Below are positions 23,315-43,828 of a DNA stretch of 64,000 nucleotides, one piece after another. Origin of the DNA: Giardia intestinalis (lineage: Eukaryota); assembly GCA_000002435.2 (NCBI GenBank), contig CM018790.1; one strand, 5' to 3'. The notes beneath the pieces are model-generated. The model ran no database searches and was not told where the DNA came from. It saw only the letters and a list, made by a program, of their open reading frames with translations. A program made the position numbers and the translations under genes. Every line of letters starts with the position of its first letter. Position 1 is the first letter of the stretch.

Positions 23315-24745
23315 TCACTTCTCGAACCTCTCCGTGTCCATTCCTGTTAGCCCATATTCATCATCTTGCTCTGCGGTTCTTTGGTAGTGTTCAACCTTAA
23401 GGGCAGGGTCATCATCAGGCGCGTAGACGTTCTTGATGAAAGAGGCGTCAAGGGGATCGTCTATGATGATAGTGAACCCTCGCTTGCCATCCGCCATTTC
23501 TTGCAGCCCCACAAGCAGCGAGCTCCACCGCTCCCGTTGTTCTGCGGACGAGCTGCCATCACCCAGCCAGAAGACACTATGCCTTTTCAGCTCGTCGTAC
23601 ATTATGCGGAGCAGACCCTCCAACGTCGTATACACGCCGCCTAGCGTTCCTGGCTCCAATCTGAGGCCGAGCTCTGGAATCTCGAGGGAGCAGCTATCTG
23701 ACTTCAGGACGTCTCTACTCAAGTCTCCGCTGTCTCCGTCCTCAATGGCCGTGCATGTAAATGTTGTACGAGCGCCATGTGGCGGGATTGCGCCCGCAGA
23801 CTTCACTTCTATGGATTTGAACCCACAATTGTCGCAGGCGCTGCACATTAAGAGGCACTCCTTGAAATAGGGTATGCTGATGAGGAGCGATTTGTTCAGT
23901 ATCTCCTCGCTACAGGCAGGGCACTTTGTCGGTAACGCCATCACTGGCATGTCCTCCGGAGCTGTGTCCAAAAGTAGCGTAACATCCTCGAGCTTACGCT
24001 CATCAACTCGTGAGACCCCAGAGCCCGCAGCTTGCCGCTGAATCACCTGCTCCTGTTCCGGACTTATTCCCAGTAGCTGTGCCTCTTCCTTGGTGCGCTG
24101 GAAGCGCCGGACGGTTAGGTTTCTGTCCAGATCACCTGTCTGGCGACCAACGAGCGGCTCAATGTAGGAATTACCAGAGGGATCTCGAAGAACCAGAGTG
24201 CATTGAGTCTTCAGCTGAAGCACGTTATTGATCTTCAAGATCACATCGTCTATCTTATCCGCGGCCTCAGGGGCCTTAAGACGACGCTCCGGCTGCAGAG
24301 CAAGCAAGTTTGTCGCTATTTGCTGGAGAGCGCCCTCTACTGTCGTGTAGAGACCCGACATGGGCCGCGGCTCCTGCTCTATCCCCAGCTCCCGAAGGGC
24401 TAGAGATGCCGTGGAAGACTTGATTACTCCTCGGCTAAGATCCTCCTCGGCTTGGATCACTAAGGTAACCTCGACGCCCCTATCTTGGATGTCTGCTGCT
24501 TGTTGGACGTCACGGCCTTTAAAACCGCAGTGCCTACATCTGAAACTCGAGACTATGCATTGCTGAAACTTGGGTATGTCGACAAAGAGAAGCTTGGTCT
24601 TTCCCATCCTATTACAGTGCATGCAAAGACTAGCCGTTACGTGCTGCTCTCCGATGTCCACCTGCACACGGGATCCGAATTCTGTCTCCGCATCGGACGA
24701 GGACGAGGATGAAGCGCTCGAGGATTGAGAGGCCGACCTAGACAT
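23315..24745 (-). CDS. ZPR1: ZPR1-type zinc-finger protein (two ZPR1 modules).
   Basis: Two CxxC-(~25)-CxxCGF zinc-finger units, each containing the ZPR1 IPxFxxC core: CMHCNRMGKTKLLFVDIPKFQQCIVSSFRCRHCGF and CPACSEEILNKSLLISIPYFKECLLMCSACDNCGF. Each is followed by an A/B-domain-like region. The ~476-aa length is typical of ZPR1. Confidence 0.75.
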   Translation of the reverse strand: MSRSASQSSSASSSSSSDAETEFGSRVQVDIGEQHVTASLCMHCNRMGKTKLLFVDIPKFQQCIVSSFRCRHCGFKGRDVQQAADIQDRGVEVTLVIQAEEDLSRGVIKSSTASLALRELGIEQEPRPMSGLYTTVEGALQQIATNLLALQPERRLKAPEAADKIDDVILKINNVLQLKTQCTLVLRDPSGNSYIEPLVGRQTGDLDRNLTVRRFQRTKEEAQLLGISPEQEQVIQRQAAGSGVSRVDERKLEDVTLLLDTAPEDMPVMALPTKCPACSEEILNKSLLISIPYFKECLLMCSACDNCGFKSIEVKSAGAIPPHGARTTFTCTAIEDGDSGDLSRDVLKSDSCSLEIPELGLRLEPGTLGGVYTTLEGLLRIMYDELKRHSVFWLGDGSSSAEQRERWSSLLVGLQEMADGKRGFTIIIDDPLDASFIKNVYAPDDDPALKVEHYQRTAEQDDEYGLTGMDTERFEK

Positions 24746-30718: not shown

Positions 30719-32656
30719 ATGCATGACGCCTGGGCCCGCCTCTACAGCGATATACACGAGGTCTCTCAGAAGAGGTGGTGGACCAGCTACTATGCATACC
30801 GAGCAGATTCTACCAGAAAAGTAGTCTTGAAGAGGATCGACCTCTCGAATCTCAAGACCAGAGAGTCAAATACTCTGGTCTGGGCATACTCACAATTGAG
30901 GGATCTCTCTAATATCTATGTAGTCAGATGTTCTGTGGTGCACTATGCGCCAGGGGACAGTCTTCTTCTCGAGTCTCCTTTTGAAGAGGGATGCAATCTC
31001 ATAGATTACGTTAAGCGCAGTTGTGCGTCCTGTGAACCAGTCTCTGAGGAGGCCCTTTGGCCTATACTTTCTCAAATATCCATGGGACTCGCATACTTGC
31101 ATACTCCTGCAGGCAAAGGGGTCATTCTACACCGGAATCTAACGCCGGCGAACGTCCTCGTGGTAGCAAACGGTGCTATAAAGCTTTCGGACATCCGGCT
31201 TGGCCCGCTATTTGACGATGATGAGCCCACGGCATTTCGAGCGCCAGAGCTGCGATCGTCCGGTAGCTTTAGTGCAAAGACCGATATCTACTCTATGGGT
31301 CGTATTATAGCTGAGCTTTGCATAGCGGGTCCCTTATCTGCCGAGACAATAACACGTTCTGCACTGGAATCACACGGCTACACCAGTGTATTTGCAACCT
31401 TACTCCATGCATGCCTAGACCCAGACCCAAGCAAACGGCCTACGGCGTGGGACATAGCGGAGCAAAGCACTCTTATTAGAGAGTTGCGAGCCAGAATGAT
31501 CTACGCTCACATGACAGCCAGTAACTCAGAGGAAAAGCAGATAGCGCCGCCTTCCACCTTTGTTGATAGTAAAACATCACTCATGTTAGCAGCAGAACGC
31601 GGGTCATTGGTTGGCGTACAGACTCTCTTGTATGAAGCTGGAGCGGTTTGGTCAGGTCCTCGAGAACTGCCCGGAACAGAAATAATCACTGCTACAGCGG
31701 CAACTCTAAGCCTCGTAAACGGCCACAAGGAGTGCTTTAAGGTACTGGCCAAGCTAGAGGTTGGCCTTGCTGGTGTCACGCCCCTAATGCTCTATGCAAC
31801 TGGGACAGTTAATTTGCCGTCTGATCCCACCACTTTAGAAACTACCGTCACTGCCCACTGCAGTGCTGCATGCATGGGGATCACTGCTCTGATGGTTGCT
31901 TCCATGTGCAATACTCCTGTCCTGTTTCCGTTGCTCCGTGAGGAGCTTCTGTTACTTGATAGCCACGGGCGATCTGCGTTAGTATACTTGCGTGACGTTG
32001 AAAGGGACACTTGTGCGGCTTTGCTGCGTGTTGTAGACGAGGATGGAGCACAAATACACCCTCTCAGCAGGGCGCTGCTCCTGGGTGAGGAGGTCAGCAC
32101 CGAAGTGGTAGGTATGAGTGACGATCTTTGGGCGCAGGACAGCTTTGGGTGGTGCCCTCTTTTGTACGCGATAGGCTTTAATCGTGCGTATGCTGTGCGC
32201 TGCATTTTGTCCTGCGAAAAGCAGCCTCCACCTAACAACATCCTTGAAGCGGCCTTACACATTGCACTTGCTTCACGAGGCTCAGATGAGGTGTTGAGTG
32301 AGCTTCTAGAACGTCTAGATAGATATAAGATCACTGTAAGGACCCGAAGAAGGTATGGGGACGTTACCCTAATCAAAACTGAGCTTATGCATGCGGCAGC
32401 AAAGGGCAGTGAGGATGAGGTTCGTAAGTACATTCACCAGTTGGGGAAGACCGTTGCAAGTTTAGAGGGAGGAACAGCCCTGATCTGTGCTGTCTCAGGA
32501 GGTCACGTCGGGTGCTGCCGACTACTGTACAGGGAACTAGGTATGCAGGACAAGCGCGGACGTACTGCACTCGACCATGCAGAAGAGGGTGGGCACTCTG
32601 AATGTATGTGGCTTCTTCGGCATGAGTCCGGCCTGTCAAAAAATGAAGCCCAATGA
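30719..32656 (+). CDS. NEK-like pseudokinase fused to ankyrin repeats (Protein 21.1/NEK family).
   Basis: The track start at 30665 is GTG, overlapping the previous stop; the first ATG is 30719 (MHDAWARLYSD). Kinase core VVLKRIDLSNLK...ILHRNLTPANVLVVANGAIKLSDIRLGPL...FRAPELRSS...DIYSMGRIIAEL has HRN in place of HRD and DIR in place of DFG, so it is predicted to be inactive. Then TALM-type ankyrin repeats follow (GITALMVASMCNTPVLFPLL, GGTALICAVSGGHVGCCRLLY, GRTALDHAEEGGHSECMWLL). Confidence 0.75.
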   Translation: MHDAWARLYSDIHEVSQKRWWTSYYAYRADSTRKVVLKRIDLSNLKTRESNTLVWAYSQLRDLSNIYVVRCSVVHYAPGDSLLLESPFEEGCNLIDYVKRSCASCEPVSEEALWPILSQISMGLAYLHTPAGKGVILHRNLTPANVLVVANGAIKLSDIRLGPLFDDDEPTAFRAPELRSSGSFSAKTDIYSMGRIIAELCIAGPLSAETITRSALESHGYTSVFATLLHACLDPDPSKRPTAWDIAEQSTLIRELRARMIYAHMTASNSEEKQIAPPSTFVDSKTSLMLAAERGSLVGVQTLLYEAGAVWSGPRELPGTEIITATAATLSLVNGHKECFKVLAKLEVGLAGVTPLMLYATGTVNLPSDPTTLETTVTAHCSAACMGITALMVASMCNTPVLFPLLREELLLLDSHGRSALVYLRDVERDTCAALLRVVDEDGAQIHPLSRALLLGEEVSTEVVGMSDDLWAQDSFGWCPLLYAIGFNRAYAVRCILSCEKQPPPNNILEAALHIALASRGSDEVLSELLERLDRYKITVRTRRRYGDVTLIKTELMHAAAKGSEDEVRKYIHQLGKTVASLEGGTALICAVSGGHVGCCRLLYRELGMQDKRGRTALDHAEEGGHSECMWLLRHESGLSKNEAQ

Positions 32657-34850
32657 CCACGTAAAGCTTACGCCTCTGGGAGCAGGCAACGAGGTCGGTC
32701 GCTCTTGCTTTATTCTGTCATATCAGCGGAGTGGCTGCTCTGGGAGCATCATGCTGGACTGCGGGCTCCACCCTGCCCTGTCCGAGACACGCGACTACGT
32801 TGCAATTCAGGCGCTCCCCTTCTTCGATTTAGAGGACTACGTCTCCACTTTGTCCCTTATCCTCATCACCCACTTCCATAACGACCACATAGCCGCTCTT
32901 CCTTATTTACTGCGGTGCCTTCGTGACCGAGCTGTTAAGGAGGGGAAGCCAGAGCTCCACTACATCCCTCCAGTTTATATGACAGCACCAACTCTAAAGA
33001 TTTTCAAGGAAAGCGTCACTGATGTCATCTCCCAGACGAAGCTCTACACCCACGAAGATGTGGAGTTTATGGCCAAGAACACTAAACTACTCACGAGCTT
33101 CTACCAGACAGAGCGGGTCAATGGGATATCTTTTACCGCAATGCCGGCAGGTCACGTCATTGGAGCGGCCATGTTCCACATTAGTATAGATAATTTCCAC
33201 GCCCTCTACACTGGTGATTTCAGTTGTGAGCCGGAGGACAGGCATCTTCAGCCTGCTACATTCCCCCAGGTAAAGCTTGATTTGCTTATAATTGAGTCTA
33301 CGTATGGGACCATTCGTCAAAAGGAACGCATGACCAGAGAGCGTGATTTTATAGATCTCATAGTTTCGACCGTCAAAAAAGATGGCTGTGTGTTGCTGCC
33401 AGTGTTTTCTATAGGCCGTGTCCAAGAGCTTCTTTGCATCTTACAAGAGTACTGGCGAGAACATGAGCAAGAGATGGCTAGAGTTACGATCTACTACGTG
33501 TCTGCAATTGCTGATAATGCACGGCAATTGTATTCGAAGGATAAGGGCTTCCTGCGCCACGGAGACACAGGACTGTCCGACATTCAAACAGGGAAGCGTA
33601 AAGATAGAATAATCTACACGAAGACGCGGCCCAAAAATCCGAAAAAGCCCTATGTGATGTTCTGCACACCTGGAATGCTTCAGTCCGGTGTCTCAAAGGA
33701 AATGTATAACGAGTTGTGCGGATCTCCTGACAACCTCCTGCTTGTCACGGGATACGCAACTCAGGACACTCTTCTCTATAAGCTTCTTGAGGGAAAACCT
33801 CCTGGGGGTTATGCGGACGCCAAGATGCGTATTGAGGAGCTGTCCTTTTCCGCTCACTCGGACTACAATCAAACACTCGATGTCCTACGAAAGACTCGCC
33901 CACGTAATGTCGCGTTCATCCACGGTAGTGAGAAGAGCATTTCATCGTTAAAAAGAACCATCGCCAATGAAACCAGGGTCAACTTCAGCGAGGGAGGCAA
34001 GGAAGCAGACAAAGAAGAAATATCGTTTCATTATCCTCGTAACGGAGAAACTGTCACCTTCGCCTTCACAAATCCTGTGCAGCTGAGCATCAAGGTTGAC
34101 ACTGGTGCAGAAGACACTGCACAGACAGGAGTTGAGGACTCTCGCTCCATCGCAGCGATAGCCAAGGCATTGGACAAGAAGAAGATGTACATCGTGCAGG
34201 ACGGATTTGCGTTTTCGTTATACAATGCGTCATCGGTAAAGAAGAAGATGCAAAGATCGTGCGGTGGGATCACACTTAATATGAGTTTGACAATTGTGGG
34301 AGATAGCCCACTGACAGAGATATTTGAGAGTCATGGATTCCGGGTTACTGATTTGGGAACAGCCATCCTCTTGGTGCCCGGACTAGAGGAGATGCATGAC
34401 ACTGTACAAGGCGCCGGGACAGAGCCAAAAGATGGGAGCAATGCAATATCCCTGGCTGTGACGACATCATCTAGAGATGTCAAGCGGGTAACTCTTTCAT
34501 TTGATCTCTTCTCAAGCGTATCTGCTCTTTGCATACGTATCCTGTACATTATCCACTCGGCATCAAAGCTGCAAAAAGAAACGTCTCAAACATGCTTAGA
34601 CCTTCCATCTGTTTGCCAGCGTATTGGAGCATCTCTATTAGAAAATTTCAACGTTCAGTTGCACGAGTCGCCCACACAAGAACTGACTGCATCTTCTCCT
34701 CCTTACATTGTTATCGGTGATGTGAGATGTTTTCTAAATTTTCGTGGTTGGAACTTTGATCCTGTTTTCCCGTTGGAGAAAAAAGACTTTACTCTCCTCT
34801 CCGACATCTCGGACCACACTAACTGTTTGGTGCGAACACTCCTCCCGTGA
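32643..34850 (+). CDS. CPSF3: CPSF73-like beta-CASP metallo-beta-lactamase endonuclease (mRNA 3'-end cleavage factor).
   Basis: N-terminus KLTPLGAGNEVGRSCFIL matches the CPSF73 ITPLGAGQEVGRSCIIL start. MBL motif LILITHFHNDHIAALPYLL (HxHxDH). Downstream beta-CASP region, then a ~250-aa lineage-specific C-terminal extension. The start is ambiguous: the ATG at 32577 would overlap the upstream gene by 80 nt, so I chose 32643 (14-nt overlap), but 32622 is also possible. Confidence 0.75.
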   Translation: MKPNDHVKLTPLGAGNEVGRSCFILSYQRSGCSGSIMLDCGLHPALSETRDYVAIQALPFFDLEDYVSTLSLILITHFHNDHIAALPYLLRCLRDRAVKEGKPELHYIPPVYMTAPTLKIFKESVTDVISQTKLYTHEDVEFMAKNTKLLTSFYQTERVNGISFTAMPAGHVIGAAMFHISIDNFHALYTGDFSCEPEDRHLQPATFPQVKLDLLIIESTYGTIRQKERMTRERDFIDLIVSTVKKDGCVLLPVFSIGRVQELLCILQEYWREHEQEMARVTIYYVSAIADNARQLYSKDKGFLRHGDTGLSDIQTGKRKDRIIYTKTRPKNPKKPYVMFCTPGMLQSGVSKEMYNELCGSPDNLLLVTGYATQDTLLYKLLEGKPPGGYADAKMRIEELSFSAHSDYNQTLDVLRKTRPRNVAFIHGSEKSISSLKRTIANETRVNFSEGGKEADKEEISFHYPRNGETVTFAFTNPVQLSIKVDTGAEDTAQTGVEDSRSIAAIAKALDKKKMYIVQDGFAFSLYNASSVKKKMQRSCGGITLNMSLTIVGDSPLTEIFESHGFRVTDLGTAILLVPGLEEMHDTVQGAGTEPKDGSNAISLAVTTSSRDVKRVTLSFDLFSSVSALCIRILYIIHSASKLQKETSQTCLDLPSVCQRIGASLLENFNVQLHESPTQELTASSPPYIVIGDVRCFLNFRGWNFDPVFPLEKKDFTLLSDISDHTNCLVRTLLP

Positions 34851-34880
34851 CTCTCTCTTCTTCAGGAAATGCCCGTCTTG

Positions 34881-36887
34881 TCATATGGATTGCAACCCGC
34901 ACAGCTTAAGTGTCTCTACGGGATATACCAAGTGAAAGTCGTGTCCACCAACAGATCTGAAGACTATATTGATTCTAGGGCAGTACTTTTCAAACTGCTC
35001 TTTAGCTTTAGCACACTGAATGATTGCATCGTCGTTTGCTAATACTAGGACTGTTTCTAAATCGAGGTCGTCAAGCCTGGTAAAGTATTCCTTCCCAGAA
35101 GTCCAGGGGAATGCTGCTGAGCTGTTGATGGCCTGCTTTATAGCGCTGGTGCAGCGACTTCGAACATGCGACTCATATTTTCGCTTGACGTTTGCCTGTA
35201 GAGGCTCTGGGAGGTACTTAACCCGGTCAGCACAATCCAAAAACGTCTTGAGGGCAAGCGTTGGATATACAGACATGAGAGGCTGAGTTATACGCGCCAG
35301 GATGGGGTGATCACGCATAAAAATCAGCTTTCGGTTCAGCTCCATCACCATACCGACGGGAGCTAGCAGCACCACCTTGTCAACGATATCTTTCAAGATC
35401 GGGGCCATGGCTGCAGCCATTAGGCCTCCGCTAGAATGCCCCACTAAGGTTATCTTTTGCTGAGAAGAGGTTGAGTTGATCAGTTTGTATGTTCTCACTG
35501 GGTAACGGACCGTTGTCGCTGTCGCTGCAGCAGAAGGCCCTGAGGGATTGTTTTCGTCCTGCGGATTCAGCTCTGCCGGAGGTTGAACTGGTGAACCCGG
35601 AGGCTCATCAAGTATCTCGAATCCATGTATCCAGTTAAGCACTGGCAGAGAAAGGACCTCTAAGCAATACCTTATTAGAGTGTCTATGTCATAGGAGTCT
35701 CCTGGTGTTCCGTCACTTCCTCCTGTTGCTGGCCAGTCGAACGTGAGAACTTCATGCGTCATTGCAAGGGCATTGATGAAGGGAGCATTAATCGTTGTGT
35801 CGAAGTCGAAACCATGCAAAAAGAGCACTCTCGGGTATTGTTCCGTCGAGGGGTCCACTGTTATGCTATCGATTTGATTCTGCTCCTTCAGTGCTTTGTC
35901 GACAGCATCGCACACGGGGTTATCCAATGCTTCACCTGTATCCTTTGGTGTGCTTGCGTCTGTCTTGGGGACTGTGGATACAGGTGGGGTTTCAAGGCTT
36001 TCGTCTTGGTATCCAGCGTTGCGGTTAGGATTATCTGCAGAAACGTCCACTAGAGACACTCTTCCGTTATCGGCTGTGTTCTTTAGTATATATGCGCTGT
36101 GCACGGTACCAGCCCGTGGATGTGAATAGTATATTTTGCACATCCCAAGCGCAGGAAGTTTGCATGCTTGTATCTTTGTTGGGTTGAGCTCCAGCCATTC
36201 CAGTGGATATTTAATCAAGAGATCCGTGGAAGCGGGGAGACGCTCGAGTGGCGGTGGGTCGACCAGCCTGTCTACCGTATCCGTGTCAAAGAACGAGACT
36301 GCACGCATGTCTGGGTTGTTCAGGTAAATGTCTTCCTTCATGCTTTCGGTGAGGATCTTTCCTGGATCGTCGATGGGAGTTGCTGTAAATACGGGGTATT
36401 TGGGCAGTTTTAATGCAGAAGCAGGATCAGCAACAGGATCGTCAAGTCTTGAAACTGTCTCGAGGTATGGCCTTAGAGGTATACTAACTGGTGGCGGGTA
36501 TGCTCCCGGGGAGCGACCACTGACTCCTCTGTCATTGGGAGAGGATTCAAGAACTAGTGGTGTCTCAAAATGCTGTAGACTCTCTATCTCAGATATATCT
36601 CTAGACTGTTCCGGCACATAATCTGCTTCCTTCGCCTCATGGGCAGGGCTGGGCTGCCCTTCGGGAGAGTTTATAGCATTCATAGCTTGGGAGACCTCTT
36701 GCTGGACCTTATCTGCCATGGCCTCGGGGCTAGTAACGCCCAGAGTGACCTCTCCAGCAGGTGAAATAGTGACTTGCTCTGCAAGAGAAGCCTTCTCAGC
36801 GTCCGTGAGCTCGGTGGTAAAGACTACCTCATGGTCACTGTTCGCATCGTTGCCCGCGGGACTTGTTGGATCGCCAGACGGTGTCAT
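34881..36887 (-). CDS. Alpha/beta-hydrolase fold protein (paralog 1 of 3), with a ~340-aa disordered P/S-rich N-terminal extension.
   Basis: C-terminal half: RVLFLHGFDFDTT...EVLTFDWPATGGSDG...ITLVGHSSGGLMAAAMAP (GHSxG nucleophile elbow)...LLAPVGM. Collinear with the hydrolases at 38272 and 40845. Confidence 0.65.
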   Translation of the reverse strand: MTPSGDPTSPAGNDANSDHEVVFTTELTDAEKASLAEQVTISPAGEVTLGVTSPEAMADKVQQEVSQAMNAINSPEGQPSPAHEAKEADYVPEQSRDISEIESLQHFETPLVLESSPNDRGVSGRSPGAYPPPVSIPLRPYLETVSRLDDPVADPASALKLPKYPVFTATPIDDPGKILTESMKEDIYLNNPDMRAVSFFDTDTVDRLVDPPPLERLPASTDLLIKYPLEWLELNPTKIQACKLPALGMCKIYYSHPRAGTVHSAYILKNTADNGRVSLVDVSADNPNRNAGYQDESLETPPVSTVPKTDASTPKDTGEALDNPVCDAVDKALKEQNQIDSITVDPSTEQYPRVLFLHGFDFDTTINAPFINALAMTHEVLTFDWPATGGSDGTPGDSYDIDTLIRYCLEVLSLPVLNWIHGFEILDEPPGSPVQPPAELNPQDENNPSGPSAAATATTVRYPVRTYKLINSTSSQQKITLVGHSSGGLMAAAMAPILKDIVDKVVLLAPVGMVMELNRKLIFMRDHPILARITQPLMSVYPTLALKTFLDCADRVKYLPEPLQANVKRKYESHVRSRCTSAIKQAINSSAAFPWTSGKEYFTRLDDLDLETVLVLANDDAIIQCAKAKEQFEKYCPRINIVFRSVGGHDFHLVYPVETLKLCGLQSI

Positions 36888-36980
36888 TATTTTTTCCTAG
36901 AATGCGAATTCGTACTATAAACCCTGCGAAACTACTAATGTACGAACCCTACAAAGAGAGCTCCGCGGTGATAAAATAAA

Positions 36981-38192
36981 TCACCCTTGCTCAATTATAC
37001 CTAAGACTTCCCGCAACTGAGACTCAGTTCTGCAGAGCACATTTAGATCAATGTCGCGAACCGTTTCGTCAATGTTCAGAACTGACCGGATCTGAGCGAA
37101 GACCTTAGCTCGTCTTTCATTAGAGTAGCTCATGAGATAAGCTGCACAGTTGAAAAGACGCATGTTGCGTTCGCGAACAGGGTCTTTACTGGTATCGTAG
37201 ACCTTTGAGCGGAAAGTGCTGGACAGCCCTGCATCTGACAATGAGTGCTGAGCCTGCGAGATGCTCGGAGCAGCAGTGATAGTATTGCCTTTTTGTTGCG
37301 ACGAGGCAGACCTCGCGCGTTTCTGTACTGGCTGAGTTTCTTTCAATGCTGAGGTGGTCAGTGTAGAACTGTTCATGGGGGTTAAGGCTCCAGACGCGGG
37401 TCTAAACTCATTGAGTGTGGATGGAAGGTCAAAGGTCACCTTCTTGCTTGCGGAGCATCCGGACCCAGGGTCATCCACGGCATTCAAAGGAAAAGATGCA
37501 GGATCAGCCTCTTTATTAAAAGAGCTAGTGCTGTTGGGACAAGCAGAAGTGGATAAGCGCGAGCCGGACCTTAGGGGTCTCGGGGTCTTACTCTTATTAT
37601 TAGGCTGAGTGTCCAGAGATCCAGAGGGATGAGGGGCAAAAAGGAGATCCAGGGCATCAGAGTCCGACTTCGGTACGGGCTTTCGTGCAACATGCTGCTT
37701 CATATTAACGGGGCACGCGAAATAACGCTCGACCTCAAGGAAGATATCATTAAAATGCTTAGCCTTTGCTGAGACTATCCTCCCTTCAAAGACGTTTGCT
37801 TGGAACACACGAATGATCTCGTTATAAAGTCGCCCCGTAGCCTCTATGATGGGTGTACAGTTTTTTGGACGGAGTGCCTGCTCTAGCGTGTACCCAGGTT
37901 TGATATTAAATCGAATGCTGTTATACGTGATCAGAAGAAAGTGGTAGCTGATCTGGCCTATCTCTGAGTAGTGACCGCCCTTCAGATTAGCCAGAATGTT
38001 TTTGAATGCACATGGGTCTTTGATATTGGTCCTATATGTTTGACAGAAACCCGCGTCATGCGCGTACGTCTCCAAGACAGGGGTCTTGAAAATGCTCGAC
38101 AGAACCTCGTTTTCAATAATATTAAGGAATGCGCCTTCCACTGTCTTCGTCAGAGGACCCTTCATCCACGCAATGAGGGGAGCAAGAGACAT
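36981..38192 (-). CDS. Hypothetical protein (403 aa), with a structured N-terminal half and a Ser/Pro-rich middle.
   Basis: ATG start confirmed. No recognisable catalytic motif. Confidence 0.45.
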   Translation of the reverse strand: MSLAPLIAWMKGPLTKTVEGAFLNIIENEVLSSIFKTPVLETYAHDAGFCQTYRTNIKDPCAFKNILANLKGGHYSEIGQISYHFLLITYNSIRFNIKPGYTLEQALRPKNCTPIIEATGRLYNEIIRVFQANVFEGRIVSAKAKHFNDIFLEVERYFACPVNMKQHVARKPVPKSDSDALDLLFAPHPSGSLDTQPNNKSKTPRPLRSGSRLSTSACPNSTSSFNKEADPASFPLNAVDDPGSGCSASKKVTFDLPSTLNEFRPASGALTPMNSSTLTTSALKETQPVQKRARSASSQQKGNTITAAPSISQAQHSLSDAGLSSTFRSKVYDTSKDPVRERNMRLFNCAAYLMSYSNERRAKVFAQIRSVLNIDETVRDIDLNVLCRTESQLREVLGIIEQG

Positions 38193-38271
38193 CGGACTCC
38201 GAGAGCGATCCTTTTGCTTGCAAAAAGAATATGAAAAAGAATATGAAAACTGAAATCAGAAGACTAAAAAC

Positions 38272-39333
38272 ATGCACGCCCTTAACCAGGACTGCTTCAC
38301 CACGATTTCCGTGCCTTCGGTCGAAAAGTTGCGAGTCTTCCACTCCATCCCTCATGGCATAGACAACCCTCCGCGCCTTCTTTTCCTTCATGGTTACTCT
38401 TTCTTTACAGACCTCTACGCCACTCTGCTTAACGAACTTTGCACCCACTTCGAGGTCCTCGCGTTTGATTCTCCTGGTACTGGGGGCTCTGGTCCCATCT
38501 TCGACGGCGATTACACCGTCAACAGCCTCGTCGAGGTTGCTCTAGAACTATTGACTATTAGCCAGCTGAGATGGGTTCCCCGTGCGGCTTCGGTCCTGTA
38601 CAAGGCGAACATGAAGTACGACCCTGACAAAATGCTCGATTCGCAATCGGGGGAGGACAGGCAGCTAGCCGAATCATTGGTCGAGTCACTGGCCTTGAGC
38701 ACAGATAGGAAGAAGTTTACCATTGTTGGACACTCTATGGGCGCATTTCTAGCAGCAGAACTTACAGTAGCGTGCTGGAACTGCGTGGAAGCCGTCTATA
38801 TGGTAGCCCCAGCGGGGATCAAGTGCGAATTGAAGAACTTCTGGTCAGACCTCTGCGGCGGTGCTTTAGGAATATTCAGGAGAGCATATGCGAAGCTGCG
38901 CCATAAGCAGACCATAGAGAAATGGGTGGCTATTCAACAAGACAGTCTGGCACAGGGGCGCTCTGTGACACATGCCGAGCAGATGCAAAGAGATTTCTCT
39001 GAGGCGTATTTGGCTAACTCAAAAGCAGCCGTTTCTCGCTTTTGCTGCCTGGTGGACTTCCCGTGGTCTAACGGGCATGACGTGTTTAGAGAATTGGAAT
39101 CTATAATAGAGAAGAAGGGGTTGAACGCTTACTGCTATCTAATGGAGCAAGACGAGATAATATCGTACAAGGATGTCAGTGCCTTCTTCAGAGACATCAT
39201 GCCCAATTGCCGTCTGCACACCGTTTCGGCCGCCAATCATGACTGGGTGAACGACCACCCCCATCTACTGGTTCATAACATAATTAACGACCGGGCTCAT
39301 CTGACTGCGGCTACGTCTAGTGTCGAGATCTAA
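38272..39333 (+). CDS. Alpha/beta-hydrolase fold protein (paralog 2 of 3; ABHD-like).
   Basis: RLLFLHGYSFFTD...EVLAFDSPGTGGSGP...FTIVGHSMGAFLAAEL...MVAPAGIK...FPWSNGHDVFRELE. Same motif order as the paralogs at 40845 and 34881. Confidence 0.65.
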   Translation: MHALNQDCFTTISVPSVEKLRVFHSIPHGIDNPPRLLFLHGYSFFTDLYATLLNELCTHFEVLAFDSPGTGGSGPIFDGDYTVNSLVEVALELLTISQLRWVPRAASVLYKANMKYDPDKMLDSQSGEDRQLAESLVESLALSTDRKKFTIVGHSMGAFLAAELTVACWNCVEAVYMVAPAGIKCELKNFWSDLCGGALGIFRRAYAKLRHKQTIEKWVAIQQDSLAQGRSVTHAEQMQRDFSEAYLANSKAAVSRFCCLVDFPWSNGHDVFRELESIIEKKGLNAYCYLMEQDEIISYKDVSAFFRDIMPNCRLHTVSAANHDWVNDHPHLLVHNIINDRAHLTAATSSVEI

Positions 39334-40729
39334 CTGTATAAAATATTCCGTTATTGGGGTCACATCCCCAAAATTGCATGCCAGGAACATCTTTTATGGT
39401 CTCTTCAATTGCGCTCACGTATGCGTTCTGCTCGTGTTGCCCAGGTAGTTCGGTCTGTGTAGCAAGGAACATATCTCTTTTATTTAGGAAGCCGTCGACT
39501 TCCAGACCAAATAGCCCTATCTTGACCGTGCTAGTGCCATGCTCTTTGCTGAGATCTATGTAGCCTGGCCAGAAGAGACGGCCGTATCCATTTCCAAGCA
39601 CTAGGTTCCGAAGACGTTTGGGCTTCTCTGACTGCGCCTCAGAGCTGTAAACTTTTATAGATTTAGTGGCGGCTATTGTGCCTCCAGACTCATCAGCGGA
39701 ATGCAATCTAGTCTCCAACGGTGGAGCGCTGAACTTCACTGCAAACTGCTTAAGGTTCTTTTCATGCTTCTGCTGCATACGCTCAAGGTGCATTTGCTTC
39801 CGTGTTTGTCTATCTGCTTGGCGACGAAGCTTCCGTTGCTCCCTTCGTTCTGCTTTAGCCTTTCTCTTTTCAGCAATCATCCTTTCTTGATCCTCCCGAT
39901 CTTGCTGCATCTTAGTTAAATGAGTTTCTAACTTCATTTGGTTTTCCTGCACGCAGTAGTTATTGCCGTCGGCGAAAGATGACAGTTGCTGGGCAGTGTC
40001 GGAAGTAATATCATCGTGGTCAGACGCGTCTGATGAGGAGCAAGTGAGAGGCGGAAACTCGTACACGCGTGCTTGAATGCTATCCAGGGAGCAGACTGAG
40101 GCATTGTGCTGCCGAATTTCCTCCATGTAAGAGCTAATATGAAGATCAAACTCGCACGATGTCAGCGGAGTAAGCTGATAAGGCGGGAGCACCTGAGTTT
40201 GCCCTGTAGGCATGTCCCATGAGGGAGGCGCTAGTATCTCTGGCTTTTCTAACGACAGATTGCAAGCGTCGCTATAGCCGAAGTTATGAGGATAAACCGA
40301 GTTATAAGAAGGTTGGTAGATATTCGTGCAAGAGATGGGTGGCTGCTGATAGAATGATTCAGGGTTGACAGGCTGGGGAAAGACCTCCTGAGGGGCGTAA
40401 TTATATAGTACTTGCTGATGTGGCTGGCTAGAAAACTGTGATGGAAACGGATAAACAGGGTCTGTGACAACGTTCTGTGGTTGTGAATAGGGCTGCTGCG
40501 GCCCGGAGCTGTGCATAGGTTGCGGTGGCTGAGAAAAGCCAAAAACTGACGGGGATGTGTGTGCTTGCATGGGCGGGTCTTCGTCAAGCAAGAGTGGCGG
40601 ATCATCATCGGATCGCGGAAGCCGCGGAGCACCTGGAGGAGCCAGCTGACGAGCAAACGAGACTGGGGTGCTCTGCAGCGCCTGAGGGTCAAGCTGTGGC
40701 GGAGAGGTAACACCGCTTGCCGAGTACAT
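39317..40729 (-). CDS. Hypothetical Pro/Gln-rich protein with a basic coiled-coil segment. Its 3' end overlaps the convergent hydrolase gene by 17 nt.
   Basis: The track start at 40741 is GTG; the first ATG is 40729 (MYSASGVTSPPQLDPQ). P/Q-rich N-terminal half, then KRKAKAERREQRKLRRQADRQTRKQ, then a ~110-aa C-terminal domain of unknown type. Confidence 0.45.
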   Translation of the reverse strand: MYSASGVTSPPQLDPQALQSTPVSFARQLAPPGAPRLPRSDDDPPLLLDEDPPMQAHTSPSVFGFSQPPQPMHSSGPQQPYSQPQNVVTDPVYPFPSQFSSQPHQQVLYNYAPQEVFPQPVNPESFYQQPPISCTNIYQPSYNSVYPHNFGYSDACNLSLEKPEILAPPSWDMPTGQTQVLPPYQLTPLTSCEFDLHISSYMEEIRQHNASVCSLDSIQARVYEFPPLTCSSSDASDHDDITSDTAQQLSSFADGNNYCVQENQMKLETHLTKMQQDREDQERMIAEKRKAKAERREQRKLRRQADRQTRKQMHLERMQQKHEKNLKQFAVKFSAPPLETRLHSADESGGTIAATKSIKVYSSEAQSEKPKRLRNLVLGNGYGRLFWPGYIDLSKEHGTSTVKIGLFGLEVDGFLNKRDMFLATQTELPGQHEQNAYVSAIEETIKDVPGMQFWGCDPNNGIFYTVRSRH

Positions 40730-40844
40730 GGGCGTTGGCACCGGTTTCTGGGCCCTTCTTTCTCAGTAGATATCTGTTGCAAAAATTGAAAAACGCCGTT
40801 ATAACGTTTCAAGTCCATTTGGCACCAATAAGTTGAGACAAAAA

Positions 40845-41768
40845 ATGGAGCACGGACATGACGCCTCGGACCCCATTGAGGAGTACTTTTTGCCCCGGGA
40901 GAAGGTGAGCTTCATCTCTGTGGAAGGATATCAGCAGGTGAAACTGTTTCGCTCAATAAAGGATAAGAGTGGACCCTGGGTTTTGTTTCTTCACGGACTG
41001 ACTTTCTACACCGATATATGTGCGGCATTTCTCAACAAGTTGTCTCGCAAGCATAATGTGCTCTCCTTCGACTGGCCCGGGGTGGGCGGTACAGATCCTT
41101 CCCGCAACGATATCTACACTCCACAAGAATTGCTCGGCTTTGCAGAGAAAGTTGTTGAAGCAGCAGAGCCGGGCCTGCCTGGCAGAGGCCTCAGTATCGT
41201 TGGGCACTCTATGGGCGGGCTCATGTCCCTTATCTTAGCAACTCACTATCTAAAGCAGGGATTTGATATAAAGAACGTTATCATGCTCGCCCCGGCAGGA
41301 GTCAAGGTCCACAAGTGGATGACTCACAGGCTGCTCACCACTCCGATCATAGGCCCTGTTCTGAACTTCATTTTTAAGAGATTCCCAGACGCCACCGCGA
41401 AGCGCATAGTCTACGAAACCCGCTACAACTTCCATTACATGCCAAAGCATATGGAGGAAGCGCTGTGGGAGCCTTTCAAGAAGAGCATGCTTCGCGACAC
41501 GAGGGTCACCGCAGCCCGCACCCTTGCCTTTGCGCAGTTTCCCTGGGAAAACCACGAAGAGCTTTTTATAGAGTTGGATAGGAGTAAGGTTAATGCAATA
41601 GTCGTGCTAGCTGGGCGCGATGTCACCATAGATACCCCCGCCACAGAGCACTTCTTGCGGACCAAGTGCTCTTCTATAAGCATACAAGTGTACCCAGATT
41701 ATACTCACGACCTTGTGGCCTGTAACGCAGATGTCATTACGGAATATATTTCTGCCGTCTTGCCGTAG
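40845..41768 (+). CDS. Alpha/beta-hydrolase fold protein (paralog 3 of 3; ABHD-like).
   Basis: The track start at 40833 is TTG; the ATG is at 40845 (MEHGHDAS). WVLFLHGLTFYTD...NVLSFDWPGVGGTDP...LSIVGHSMGGLMSLILA...MLAPAGVK...FPWENHEELFIELD. Confidence 0.65.
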   Translation: MEHGHDASDPIEEYFLPREKVSFISVEGYQQVKLFRSIKDKSGPWVLFLHGLTFYTDICAAFLNKLSRKHNVLSFDWPGVGGTDPSRNDIYTPQELLGFAEKVVEAAEPGLPGRGLSIVGHSMGGLMSLILATHYLKQGFDIKNVIMLAPAGVKVHKWMTHRLLTTPIIGPVLNFIFKRFPDATAKRIVYETRYNFHYMPKHMEEALWEPFKKSMLRDTRVTAARTLAFAQFPWENHEELFIELDRSKVNAIVVLAGRDVTIDTPATEHFLRTKCSSISIQVYPDYTHDLVACNADVITEYISAVLP

Positions 41769-41946: not shown

Positions 41947-42876
41947 ATGGACATCCATCTCATTTACCCCTTAGATTACAGTTGGACTCAGATTGTTTGC
42001 GCATTAGAAGCCATCGGGATCCATGTTAGCAAAGATAAGAGTGAGGCGTTTTTAACGCTTTTTTCTGAGACAAGCCATCTTTCACACACGCAATACATGG
42101 AGACGACGTGCATCAGCTTCGACGCCCTTCCTCATGGTATCGGGGTGTTGCTATTCTTTCTCCCCGCAGACAATTATCTCGGAGAAGCCGTGCTCGCCAG
42201 AAACATAGGTACATTCATGCTTCTTCCTAGCCGTCTTTTTGTCATAGACCCCTCTTGCAGACGCCAACACTATCCAGCCCATAGAGATGCATCCAGTGTG
42301 GTGGGTGCCAACCTGTCTCCTATCCCCACATTCAGATTGCCCGACGACATTGCTCCGTTGAAGTGCTCCATCTGCTCGTACTTGGGCCTCGTCTTGCATA
42401 AGCGGGCCTTGCCCGACGTTGTACAGGCGTCCTCACTCTGCCTGCTTGTCTGGGAGTGGATAAGACGCTATGAGGAGACTGCGTCAAACGCTACAGTCGA
42501 GAGCATACGACACTTTGGCCGGCTTGTTGGGGGGAATCTCCGAAACGAGATGGTCTCCAGTGACCCAGGAGCTCGTGAGCAGGTGCAAGTACAGCTGACG
42601 ACCCTAGCAAACTTCGTTCGCAGCATTCTTCATAAGAGCTGCACAAATACTTCGATGATACTGGGCCACTGCACGCTAAAAGAATACAAGCTACAAATCT
42701 TCATTTACGTCAGGTACAGGCCAGCAACCTTTCAGATACTGCTGGGCCACATGCTTGCAAGCATTTGCTGGTCGTTCACGGGAAGCAAGGAGGACACAGT
42801 CGTTTGCAGCCAGGACAAGACACATCTCGCCATCTCTGTTCTACTGCATCGCCCGCCTAGCTCACCCCATGCTTAG
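41947..42876 (+). CDS. Hypothetical protein (309 aa).
   Basis: ATG start and plausible spacing to neighbours. No recognisable motif. Confidence 0.4.
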   Translation: MDIHLIYPLDYSWTQIVCALEAIGIHVSKDKSEAFLTLFSETSHLSHTQYMETTCISFDALPHGIGVLLFFLPADNYLGEAVLARNIGTFMLLPSRLFVIDPSCRRQHYPAHRDASSVVGANLSPIPTFRLPDDIAPLKCSICSYLGLVLHKRALPDVVQASSLCLLVWEWIRRYEETASNATVESIRHFGRLVGGNLRNEMVSSDPGAREQVQVQLTTLANFVRSILHKSCTNTSMILGHCTLKEYKLQIFIYVRYRPATFQILLGHMLASICWSFTGSKEDTVVCSQDKTHLAISVLLHRPPSSPHA

Positions 42877-43177: not shown

Positions 43178-43828
43178 ATGGAACAACTCGTAGTCCGGGA
43201 TATACAGGGAACGGAGGACCTCGAGGTGCTCAAGAAGAAGCACATCGCCCTGATAGTTAAGGACGGCATGTCCTCTGCGGCATTTTACAAGGTCTACAAT
43301 AGCATTTTGTGCCGCTATCCAGATGACCACGTCCTGCTCAATGGGGTGTTTTCCTTGCTGATGCTCATCCTGCTCGATATAGGTACAGAGCGACCGGAGA
43401 TACCACAGGATGACGCGCTGGTGGACACTGTTCACTCTTATTACAAGGCACTCCAGGGCACCTTAGAGTACAAGGAGTTTCTGTCGTCTCTGCGCTCCAT
43501 GCTCCCGTTCATCATGCAGCTAAATATTGATGCTGGTCGATTGTTTCAGATTATTCTTTTTCAAAGGACTCCGGCTGAGCTAAGGTATGAAACATTTGCC
43601 TCTGCAGAGGAGATTAGGGCCATGTGGGAATCGGATATCCTTTGCTTTGATTGTGGCGTGTACCTTAAGTATGGGAAGAGCGGTCATATATGTACCCATG
43701 CTCCGCAGCTTTCTGAACGGTTGTCCACAACCCAGAAGATTCAGAGAAACTGGGGTCCAGTGCGCTTTGAGTGGGTTGCAGAGCGGGTTCACGAGCCAAC
43801 CAACATCCCCTTTGTGCGAGTCGTCTGA
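43178..43828 (+). CDS. Hypothetical protein (216 aa) with a C-terminal Cys/His cluster (CFDCGVYLKYGKSGHICTH).
   Basis: ATG start. Possible small zinc-binding motif. No family assignment. Confidence 0.4.
   Translation: MEQLVVRDIQGTEDLEVLKKKHIALIVKDGMSSAAFYKVYNSILCRYPDDHVLLNGVFSLLMLILLDIGTERPEIPQDDALVDTVHSYYKALQGTLEYKEFLSSLRSMLPFIMQLNIDAGRLFQIILFQRTPAELRYETFASAEEIRAMWESDILCFDCGVYLKYGKSGHICTHAPQLSERLSTTQKIQRNWGPVRFEWVAERVHEPTNIPFVRVV

Follow-up and report, generated by a model that had tools for sequence, protein, structure and literature searches.

Old, linked ABHD6/PlaF-like alpha/beta-hydrolase paralogues at the ENC6 locus of Giardia intestinalis

A cluster of three alpha/beta-hydrolase genes, here called copies 1, 2 and 3, lies within a 64-kb window of the Giardia intestinalis genome (64,000 nucleotides, the whole stretch analysed). 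On balance, and with moderate confidence, we favour the reading that these are old local paralogues of the ABHD6/PlaF-like type that act as serine hydrolases, probably on glycerolipid esters, with copies 1 and 2 induced during encystation and the copy 1 lineage probably having a non-catalytic role as well.

The three hydrolase genes and their neighbours

Copy 1 (34881..36887, minus strand; 668 aa; XP_001705929.1 / A8BNJ9), copy 2 (38272..39333, plus strand; 353 aa; XP_001705926.1 / A8BNJ4) and copy 3 (40845..41768, plus strand; 307 aa; XP_001705923.1 / A8BNI9) are open reading frames free of internal stops, whose products match proteins of G. intestinalis WB exactly, in line with the attribution to Giardia in the original prediction. 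The existing annotation is "ENC6 protein" for copies 1 and 2 and "Alpha/beta hydrolase family protein" for copy 3. The genes are not new, all being annotated and ENC6 having been in print since 1996, and because two of the annotated copies already carry the name of this encystation gene the locus is an ordinary gene family and not a discovery. Each copy scores above the Pfam gathering thresholds for Abhydrolase_1 (6e-16 for copy 1), Abhydrolase_6 and Hydrolase_4, and a family profile matched only these three among all ORFs of at least 40 aa in the window. BLASTP gives an E value of 5e-23 for copies 1 and 2 (25% identity across 313 aa), 9e-23 for copies 2 and 3 (24% across 331 aa), and two HSPs for copies 1 and 3 (2e-14 and 2e-12); similarity in this range (1e-12 to 1e-23) is far beyond chance. 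Reading frames, Pfam matches and pairwise comparisons agree with the original prediction of three paralogous alpha/beta-hydrolases at these positions. None of the three has a hydrophobic segment except the core strands, and all are predicted to be soluble, with neither signal peptide nor transmembrane segment.

The genes between the copies are unrelated to the hydrolases, as had been proposed. Between copies 1 and 2 lies a bromodomain-like gene (36981..38192, minus strand; 403 aa) with a weak Pfam Bromodomain match (1.1e-5), whose position is kept in a divergent G. intestinalis lineage and in G. muris. The gene between copies 2 and 3 (39317..40741, minus strand; 474 aa) has no Pfam match, shares a 17 bp overlap at its 3' end with the 3' end of copy 2, evolves fast (dN 0.351) and has a weak G. 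muris counterpart (7e-4) upstream of G. muris copy 3. Copy 2 (dN 0.080 relative to that divergent G. intestinalis lineage) and copy 3 (dN 0.084) are under purifying selection, their dN of about 0.08 equalling the 0.077 of a neighbouring CPSF73-like gene.

Catalytic residues, relatives and probable substrates

The collinear motifs listed in the original prediction are present with small deviations. LFLHG, AP(V/A)G and FPW occur in all three copies, the longer FPW.N being limited to copies 2 and 3; D(W/S)P(A/G)xGG(S/T) is common to them, with PA rather than PG in copy 1; and the nucleophile elbow VGHS(S/M)G(G/A) ends in A in copy 2. The family alignment confirms the Ser-Asp-His triad in every copy, together with the HG oxyanion motif. 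In copy 1 the triad comprises Ser485 in VGHSSGG (35433..35435), Asp620 (35028-35030) and His649 (34941-34943), with the oxyanion His358-Gly359 at 35811-35816 (all minus strand), and Asp620 and His649 are invariant across the 20 aligned family sequences. On the plus strand, the triads are Ser155 (38734-38736), Asp294 (39151-39153) and His323 (39238-39240) in copy 2 and Ser122 (41208-41210), Asp259 (41619-41621) and His288 (41706-41708) in copy 3. Copy 3 is the minimal form, and its AF2 model (pLDDT 93.1, pTM 0.91) has eight strands and a five-helix cap, the cap occupying residues 159-230 (41319-41534, plus strand). Given the intact triad, the HG oxyanion motif and the helical cap that covers the active site, the G. 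intestinalis copies would be serine hydrolases working by the standard route, in which Ser attacks the ester carbonyl, an acyl-enzyme intermediate forms and a His/Asp-activated water follows.

The closest characterised relatives of the three copies are the ABHD6/PlaF lipid hydrolases. Among PDB entries, the family profile matches human ABHD6 (PDB 7ots) best, at full length and with 103 bits (1.8e-28), leaving the second-ranked entry 20 bits behind. Foldseek with the copy 3 model ranks ABHD6 first (TM 0.69/0.72) and PlaF second, and for the family member P0130 the top PDB match is PlaF (4.4e-9), with PlaF and ABHD6 both within the top three. The original label "ABHD-like" is thus borne out by profile and by structure. 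ABHD6 is a monoacylglycerol, lysophospholipid and BMP lipase. It resembles the family in its HG oxyanion, GxSxG elbow, "PAG" after beta6, helical cap and Asp/His positions; however, identity is only 14-17%, its N-terminal membrane anchor is absent from the Giardia copies, and it has no FPW. PlaF (PA2949 of Pseudomonas aeruginosa, PDB 6i8w), which is recognised as homologous to ABHD6, is a membrane-bound Lands-cycle phospholipase A1 that remodels membrane glycerophospholipids. This bacterial protein (15-18% identity) has a transmembrane helix as its anchor and is controlled through dimerisation, whereas the Giardia copies are not membrane-anchored. Judging from these nearest relatives, the substrates would likely be glycerolipid esters with a single acyl chain, with monoacylglycerols, lysophospholipids or the sn-1 ester of phospholipids as candidates. 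No characterised phospholipase A or lysophospholipase of Giardia appears in a 2023 review.

Active serine hydrolases could also be small-molecule or xenobiotic esterases, thioesterases/depalmitoylases or S33-type peptidases working on other than glycerolipid substrates. We consider this rather unlikely, given that searches by profile, by single sequence and by Foldseek consistently place ABHD6/PlaF lipid hydrolases nearest, that yeast monoglyceride lipase is the best match of copy 3 alone, and that a large helical cap is typical of lipid-binding members. Far less probable still are lysophospholipid acyltransferases of the ABHD4/ABHD5/Ict1 type using an HxxxxD motif, an activity suggested in the original prediction. 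G. intestinalis copy 2 does carry this motif at its catalytic His (HDWVND), but it is absent from copy 1 (HDFHLV), copy 3 (HDLVAC), G. muris copy 2 (HDWVMV) and all 16 remaining members in the family alignment. Since neither G. muris copy 2 nor any other member has it, it gives no evidence for an acyltransferase, and ABHD5-type proteins are not among the top PDB profile matches.

Age of the duplications and divergence of copy 1

A lineage-specific duplication had been proposed for the cluster. The copies are indeed paralogues that group together in a topology test, but they are not recent, as each has a G. muris orthologue and identity among them is only about 25%. The orthology is one-to-one (NJ bootstrap 100, 99.5 and 89), the divergent G. 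intestinalis lineage retains the cluster, and G. muris has the same gene arrangement on two contigs joined via a 19-nt overlap and a shared split gene. With orthologues of all three arranged alike in G. muris, the duplications are old. Most likely they took place locally in the Giardia lineage, ahead of the split between G. intestinalis and G. muris, within a diplomonad/fornicate-specific branch of ABHD6/PlaF-like alpha/beta-hydrolases. Unrelated genes would since have come to lie between the copies, whose linkage persists because Giardia generally preserves local gene order. The idea of an expanded set is overstated, with just three linked copies and one unlinked copy in Giardia and comparable numbers in other diplomonads, and the role in host-lipid handling suggested alongside it is conjectural.

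The same family includes Spironucleus salmonicida EST45277, EST47338 and EST43318, Hexamita inflata and Dysnectes brevis proteins, and the unlinked Giardia P0132 (GL50581_3165-like), which score 72-130 bits to the three-copy profile, compared with about 70 bits or less for the generic tail. The triad, PAG and FPW occur in most fornicate members. These relatives differ in lacking the N-terminal extension and the insertion after helix A, and they fall outside the clade of copies 1-3 in the preferred tree. The PG(T/V)GG of the copy 1, 2 and 3 types, versus PGHG in all other fornicate members, is possibly a shared derived motif. Among hand-chosen topologies scored with a home-made Gonnet+G4 likelihood, monophyly of the three copies is preferred, as their predicted clustering implied (RELL 0.97 in one setting and 0.89-0.93 in four more); the NJ tree supports this clade at only 42.5%.

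Copy 1 had been credited with a disordered, P/S-rich N-terminal extension of about 340 aa. An extension of low predicted order exists, but the hydrolase domain starts at about residue 226, not about 341, so that the true extension is about 225 aa (residues 1-225; 36213..36887, minus strand) and the remainder includes an insertion within the domain. With P 11%, D 9%, A 9% and S 8.7% it is only mildly P/S-rich. Most positions of residues 1-222 have pLDDT <50 in the AF2 model, and the extension has no Pfam match and no homologue found except in copy 1 orthologues, G. muris copy 1 having a shorter counterpart in the alignment. Residues 1-184 are still constrained (dN 0.175, dS saturated), and residues 185-263 are the most conserved part of copy 1 (dN 0.043). 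The beta1-beta2 hairpin (residues 226-263, "YPLEWLEL...CKIYYSHP"; 36099..36212, minus strand) can be aligned to the N-terminal hairpin in every family member and is modelled at pLDDT 73-92, with strands at 239-244 and 248-254. Besides the orphan extension, copy 1 would have gained two insertions. One of about 88 aa between beta2 and beta3 (residues 264-351; 35835..36098, minus strand) is in no other family member, is shorter in G. muris copy 1, and has dN 0.184 and pLDDT <50 at 261-330. The other, P-rich and fast-evolving (residues 413-476; 35460..35651, minus strand; dN 0.347; pLDDT <50 at 434-460), follows helix A, and an insertion with the same site and the same "W(I/V)" start is found in copies 1 and 2, P0129 and P0134 but not in copy 3 or G. 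muris copy 1. The insertion of copy 2 spans about residues 96-145 (38557-38706, plus strand).

Unexpectedly, both the nucleophile Ser and the HG motif are missing from G. muris copy 1, which reads GHGEG and LFLTDF in two sequences, yet its core remains conserved. The two sequences are 91% identical and differ at 12/262 core positions versus 27/165 in the extension. Since these motifs were lost from a protein that stayed conserved, the copy 1 lineage probably also has a non-catalytic role. ABHD5 / CGI-58 is a catalytically inactive alpha/beta-hydrolase that co-activates ATGL, and purely by analogy with it one might imagine a regulatory role for G. muris copy 1, in which the nucleophile is likewise lost. 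The analogy extends to G. muris copy 1 only; HxxxxD is not conserved, and G. intestinalis copy 1 keeps its Ser.

Two further alternatives concern single copies. Copy 3 could represent a separate fornicate branch of greater age and be a neighbour of copies 1 and 2 by position only, with no local duplication. It scores as high against P0132, the unlinked fourth paralogue (87 bits), and P0130 (99 bits) as against copies 1 and 2 (84-85 bits), so that pairwise scores alone do not separate these groupings; it lacks the insertion common to copies 1 and 2, P0129 and P0134; and a topology with copy 3 basal is not rejected (dlnL -10 to -15, 1.2-1.6 SE, RELL 0.03-0.11). However, monophyly is ML-preferred in 5/5 settings, grouping copy 3 with the fourth paralogue costs 28-41 lnL and is rejected at about 3 SE, the PGxGG motif is present in copies of all three types, and physical linkage is kept as far as G. 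muris, all of which makes a separate origin quite improbable. As the triad is intact and monophyly is favoured, neither missing catalytic residues nor independent origins, either of which would have counted against the original prediction, were found. A somewhat stronger, though still improbable, contender is that copy 1 (ENC6) is mainly a non-catalytic scaffold or regulator in encystation, on a pseudoenzyme trajectory like that of ABHD5/CGI-58, with its retained residues dispensable. The two independent G. muris sequences lacking Ser and HG with a core 95% conserved between them, the restriction of the orphan extension to copy 1 with its proximal part (residues 185-263) so conserved, and the greatest divergence of this copy between species (33% identity, versus 44% for copy 2 and 38% for copy 3) all point that way. 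The loss may nevertheless be specific to G. muris, and GHSSG, HG, Asp and His are all still present in copy 1 of G. intestinalis assemblages A, B-like and E, an argument for retained catalysis in these. We prefer a catalytic copy 1 in G. intestinalis, with a non-catalytic role probably added in its lineage.

ENC6 and encystation

Copy 1 is ENC6, an encystation transcript published in 1996 and described as encystation-regulated and with stage-specific polyadenylation (Que et al. 1996; GenBank AAB40524), the original 247-aa fragment being 100% identical to its residues 437-668. Compared with ENC6 of Giardia lamblia (GiardiaDB GL50803_102961, GL50803_24372), copy 1 is the same gene with nothing different and copy 2 has the same annotation. 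ENC6 figures in the literature as a transcript or protein marker of encystation only; in the papers searched it is assigned no enzymatic function, analysed within no family and never linked to copy 3. From a match in locus length, the order of P15 tags and a statement in one paper, copy 1 would be GL50803_102961 and copy 2 GL50803_24372. Under this mapping, the comparison of stages that had been proposed shows that both genes are induced in mid to late encystation, with copy 1 listed in published data as up at 14 h and copy 2 rising in published FPKM from 63 in trophozoites to 307 at 22 h and 362 in cysts. For the family as we read it, the induction of these two putative lipid hydrolases would coincide with the mid to late encystation period, a time at which Giardia is known to remodel its lipid metabolism.

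Three hydrolase genes and their architecture

An exact-sequence look-up of the three hydrolase genes identified the window as Giardia intestinalis WB C6. C1 (34881-36887, - strand) is an uninterrupted ORF of 668 aa (XP_001705929.1 / A8BNJ9) and C2 (38272-39333, + strand) an uninterrupted ORF of 353 aa (XP_001705926.1 / A8BNJ4), both annotated as 'ENC6 protein'; C3 (40845-41768, + strand), likewise uninterrupted, encodes 307 aa from its ATG (XP_001705923.1 / A8BNI9) and is annotated as 'Alpha/beta hydrolase family protein'. The published ENC6 clone AAB40524 (P0276, 247 aa) matches C1 residues 437-668 at 100% identity, and C2 has only the database name in common with it. As summarised in PMC3610916, the 1996 account of ENC6 presented a transcript regulated in encystation and polyadenylated in a stage-specific manner; it serves as an encystation marker (PMC7743719). 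With these annotations and publications, the genes are already on record, and so is the relationship between the two ENC6 copies.

C1, C2 and C3 each pass the Pfam gathering thresholds for Abhydrolase_1, Abhydrolase_6 and Hydrolase_4, with Abhydrolase_6 scores of 48.8, 61.2 and 57.9 bits, respectively, against a cut-off of 26.3. Pairwise BLASTP gave 5e-23 for C1 and C2, 9e-23 for C2 and C3, and 2e-14 and 2e-12 for C1 and C3, at 24-29% identity. Judged by these comparisons, the likeness is far beyond chance, and the three are paralogues of a Giardia-lineage family, as originally predicted from collinear motifs, which we found in all three proteins with minor deviations. A family HMM run against all window ORFs of at least 40 aa recovered these three genes only, with no further copies or relics. 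The genes interleaved with them are unrelated to the hydrolases: one (36981-38192, - strand) encodes a protein with a weak Pfam match to the bromodomain, and the other (39317-40741, - strand) encodes 474 aa without a Pfam family.

Several gene boundaries in this neighbourhood deserve mention. The mechanical ORF of C3 opens at a TTG at 40833, upstream of the annotated ATG at 40845; other isolates carry annotations of 346-350 aa, which an in-frame stop upstream of 40770 cannot support here. C2 and the 474-aa gene lie on opposite strands and overlap tail-to-tail by 17 bp (39317-39333). For the CPSF73-like gene (32577-34850, + strand) the longest ORF gives 757 aa, against 735-736 aa in the gene calls of other isolates and of a divergent lineage, which implies that the gene really starts at the ATG at 32643. 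A 56-aa Dpy-30-like ORF at ~42.9 kb (- strand), between 41947-42876 (+) and 43178-43828 (+), is called in all related loci including G. muris and is too short for the window's 100-aa ORF list.

The fold is that of the alpha/beta-hydrolases, with an eight-stranded beta-sheet, flanking helices and a nucleophile elbow after beta5. The model of C3 (pLDDT 93.1, pTM 0.91) has the canonical eight strands and a five-helix cap at residues 159-230. By alignment, the predicted Ser-Asp-His triad is intact in every copy (Ser485, Asp620 and His649 in C1; Ser155, Asp294 and His323 in C2; Ser122, Asp259 and His288 in C3), with the Ser in GxSxG, the Asp after beta7, the His after beta8 and the HG oxyanion motif present as LFLHG. 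The Asp and His are invariant across a 20-sequence family alignment. Scanning for hydrophobicity revealed no signal peptide-like or transmembrane segment in C1, C2 or C3; the highest 19-residue Kyte-Doolittle means (1.3-1.6) fall in core strands, and there is no hydrophobic N-terminal segment.

C1 had been credited with a disordered N-terminal extension of ~340 aa. The extension exists, and its limits need to be redrawn. Residues ~226-263 ('YPLEWLEL...CKIYYSHP') align with the beta1-beta2 hairpin of all relatives and are confidently modelled, so that the supposed extension resolves into three segments: ~225 residues modelled at low confidence, the domain strands beta1 and beta2, and an insertion of 88 aa. 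Residues 413-476 form another insertion, at a site where C2 and the cluster-type sequences P0129 and P0134 from another fornicate also carry one. Residues 1-230 used as a query matched an orthologue fragment only, with no homologue outside C1 orthologues and no Pfam match. Between the two G. intestinalis lineages dS is saturated, and we therefore used dN alone. Within the extension, dN is 0.175 over residues 1-184 and 0.043 over residues 185-263, compared with 0.35 in an unrelated neighbour gene, and by this measure the extension is evidently not free-running. C2 and C3 (dN 0.080 and 0.084) are constrained to about the level of the CPSF73-like neighbour (0.077).

Descent and gene order

Searching 1.84 billion representatives exhaustively with a profile returned nine proteins below 1e-30, followed by a graded series. 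The nearest relatives by source name are the G. muris ENC6 proteins, a fourth, unlinked G. intestinalis paralogue (P0132), and alpha/beta-hydrolases of Spironucleus salmonicida, Hexamita inflata and Dysnectes brevis. A word-indexed homology search with C3 alone as query found near-identical orthologues only; the intermediates came from the exhaustive search. Each G. intestinalis copy pairs with its own G. muris counterpart in neighbour-joining trees (bootstrap 100, 99.5 and 89), at identities of 33% for C1, 44% for C2 and 38% for C3. This one-to-one pairing places the duplications before the split of G. intestinalis and G. muris, and the original prediction therefore overstated their recency.

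The order kinase, CPSF73-like, C1 (-), bromodomain (-), C2 (+), 474-aa gene (-), C3 (+) is retained in a divergent G. intestinalis lineage. The G. muris-type order, pieced together from two contigs that overlap by 19 nt and share a split gene, is the same with one addition: C1, bromodomain, C2, an extra gene, a gene resembling the 474-aa gene, C3. The extra gene encodes 327 aa without a Pfam family, spans two Logan contigs (L011:2-763, - strand, joined across the 19-nt overlap to L010:1-240, + strand) and is absent from this position in G. intestinalis. Local synteny between these Giardia genomes is general (PMC7641422), so the conserved order of the three genes does not imply selection for clustering and needs no special explanation.

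Do the three linked genes form a clade of their own? Pairwise scores alone do not show that they are each other's closest kin, since C3 scores 87 bits against P0132 and 99 bits against P0130, a fornicate sequence of the same type as P0132, compared with 84-85 bits against C1 and C2. Neighbour-joining support for a joint clade is likewise weak (42.5%). We therefore compared 14 topologies by likelihood (Gonnet-derived rate matrix, four gamma categories, 28 taxa, 281 columns). Topologies that unite C1, C2 and C3, together with P0129 and P0134, received a RELL proportion of 0.97, and monophyly kept 0.89-0.93 in four other trimming and alpha settings. Joining C3 to the fourth-paralogue group costs 30-41 lnL units (~3 SE). 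A topology with C3 basal fares better, at 15 lnL units worse (1.6 SE), and is not rejected. The family alignment adds a supporting character, as PG(T/V)GG is common to all cluster-type sequences and PGHG is found in all others. Among the 14 chosen topologies, the case for a clade of C1, C2 and C3 that excludes the unlinked paralogues is thus good but not decisive, and the copies cluster as anticipated.

The two cluster-type copies of the other fornicate, P0129 and P0134 (L009:3859-4887 and L013:1807-2664), lie ~16 kb apart on contig SRR31929897_24641, and the genes next to them are unrelated to the Giardia neighbours. The same organism carries the fourth-paralogue-type copy P0130 (L012:4086-5042).

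Encystation and the G. muris ENC6 protein

Published values point to induction of two of the genes during encystation. GL50803_24372 has FPKM values of 63 in trophozoites, 307 at 22 h and 362 in cysts, a 5-6-fold rise (PMC4807828 S1), and GL50803_102961 is listed among the 14-h up-regulated genes without a Myb2 motif (PMC8700996 Table S3). We infer that these identifiers denote C2 and C1, respectively, because the 2,458-nt 24372 'locus' corresponds exactly to a merger of C2 and the 474-aa gene, because of the order of the P15 locus tags, and because the MBE paper equates GL_102961 with Que's ENC6; expression statements for C1 and C2 hang on this mapping, and they cover these two copies only. 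The 17-bp overlap of C2 with the 474-aa gene probably led Cufflinks to merge the two into the single published locus.

Upstream of C1, C2 and C3, the Myb2 motif (CWACAG) has one reverse-strand match, in the spacer between the 474-aa gene and C3, where the background rate is 1 per 888 bp. This lone match and the published listing without a motif provide no evidence for shared Myb2 control. The three genes are not mentioned in the supplements of the Myb2-knockout paper. Three adjacent P15 genes, GLP15_2990, GLP15_2991 and GLP15_2992, all appear in Table S3 of PMC8700996 as up-regulated at 14 h and lacking a Myb2 motif. By our assignment they would correspond to the bromodomain gene, C1 and the gene of the CPSF73-like protein (32643-38192 in the window), and their joint signal could reflect either co-regulation or read-through or antisense transcription from ENC6.

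In Giardia, ENC6 is the classic example of alternative polyadenylation that changes with the life-cycle stage. C1 (- strand) is convergent with the gene of the CPSF73-like beta-CASP nuclease (32643-34850, + strand), with only 30 bp (34851-34880) between the stop codons. The longer ENC6 3′ UTRs are reported at ~300 nt, with a mapped polyA site ~2 kb downstream (PMC3610916). On these figures, the longer 3′ UTRs would extend antisense into the gene of the mRNA 3′-end cleavage enzyme itself.

The G. muris orthologue of C1 carries GHGEG in place of GHSxG and LFLTDF in place of LFLHGF, both in the reference (TNJ29683.1, P0315) and in an independent sequence of 91% identity; a G. muris-type orthologue, P0128, is located at L010:2402-3976, and the C1 type of G. 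muris corresponds to GMRT_16336/16338. The G. muris-type pair differs at 27 of 165 positions in the extension compared with 12 of 262 in the hydrolase-like core, which is 95% conserved. All catalytic residues of C1 are kept across the G. intestinalis assemblages. Lacking both the Ser and the HG motif, the G. muris protein cannot act as a serine hydrolase, yet it is conserved; as far as its sequence tells, it is a conserved pseudoenzyme, which suggests that the ENC6 lineage has a function beyond catalysis. A fuller scenario can be drawn, in which the C1 lineage is an enzyme turning regulator whose conserved proximal extension and hydrolase-like core act as a CGI-58-like, non-catalytic partner in control of its active paralogues or of lipid mobilisation in cyst formation. 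The G. muris copy would then be fully dead, and the trio would pair enzymes with a pseudoenzyme in one module that remodels lipids during encystation and is a candidate orlistat target. We consider this scenario very unlikely.

Kinship with ABHD6 and PlaF

The best PDB match of the family profile is human ABHD6 (7ots; 103 bits, 1.8e-28, full length), which leads the next by 20 bits. The less divergent member P0130 matches PlaF (6i8w) and ABHD6, along with a 'triacylglycerol lipase related protein', and in Foldseek the C3 model has ABHD6 as its top hit, followed by PlaF. The latter, a recognised homologue of ABHD6, is a phospholipase A1 of the Lands cycle (PMC9132575). Among characterised hydrolases, the closest kinship in both sequence and structure is thus of the ABHD6/PlaF type, in line with the ABHD-like character first proposed, although the N-terminal transmembrane anchor of that type is absent from C1, C2 and C3. 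From this distant homology we can defend the view that the three would work like ABHD6/PlaF-type serine lipid esterases, a statement of likeness and not of placement in the ABHD6 orthogroup.

An acyltransferase activity had also been suggested. The HxxxxD motif of ABHD4, ABHD5 and Ict1, located at the catalytic His, occurs in G. intestinalis C2 only and is absent from the other 19 of the 20 family sequences, including G. muris C2. We rejected this reading and take the C2 instance as chance.

The gene family, its annotation and the stage regulation of ENC6 are already on record. What is added here is small: C3 is likely to share a clade with the two ENC6 genes, the duplications are older than the divergence of G. 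muris, a corrected domain architecture is given for ENC6, and the catalytic Ser of G. muris ENC6 is lost. The conserved pseudoenzyme state of the latter is the only mildly surprising item. Giardia is without fatty acid synthesis and relies on lipids scavenged from the host, and a marked reorganisation of its lipid metabolism has been reported for the middle and late phases of encystation. No gene-level characterisation of a Giardia phospholipase A or lysophospholipase has been reported, no target has been reported for the giardicidal lipase inhibitor orlistat, and a literature search on activity-based serine-hydrolase profiling in Giardia returned nothing relevant. As ABHD6/PlaF-like, encystation-induced serine hydrolases, these proteins are reasonable candidates for the phospholipase A and lysophospholipase activities, and they would be worth including in activity-based profiling or a CRISPRi screen, a modest and practical value.
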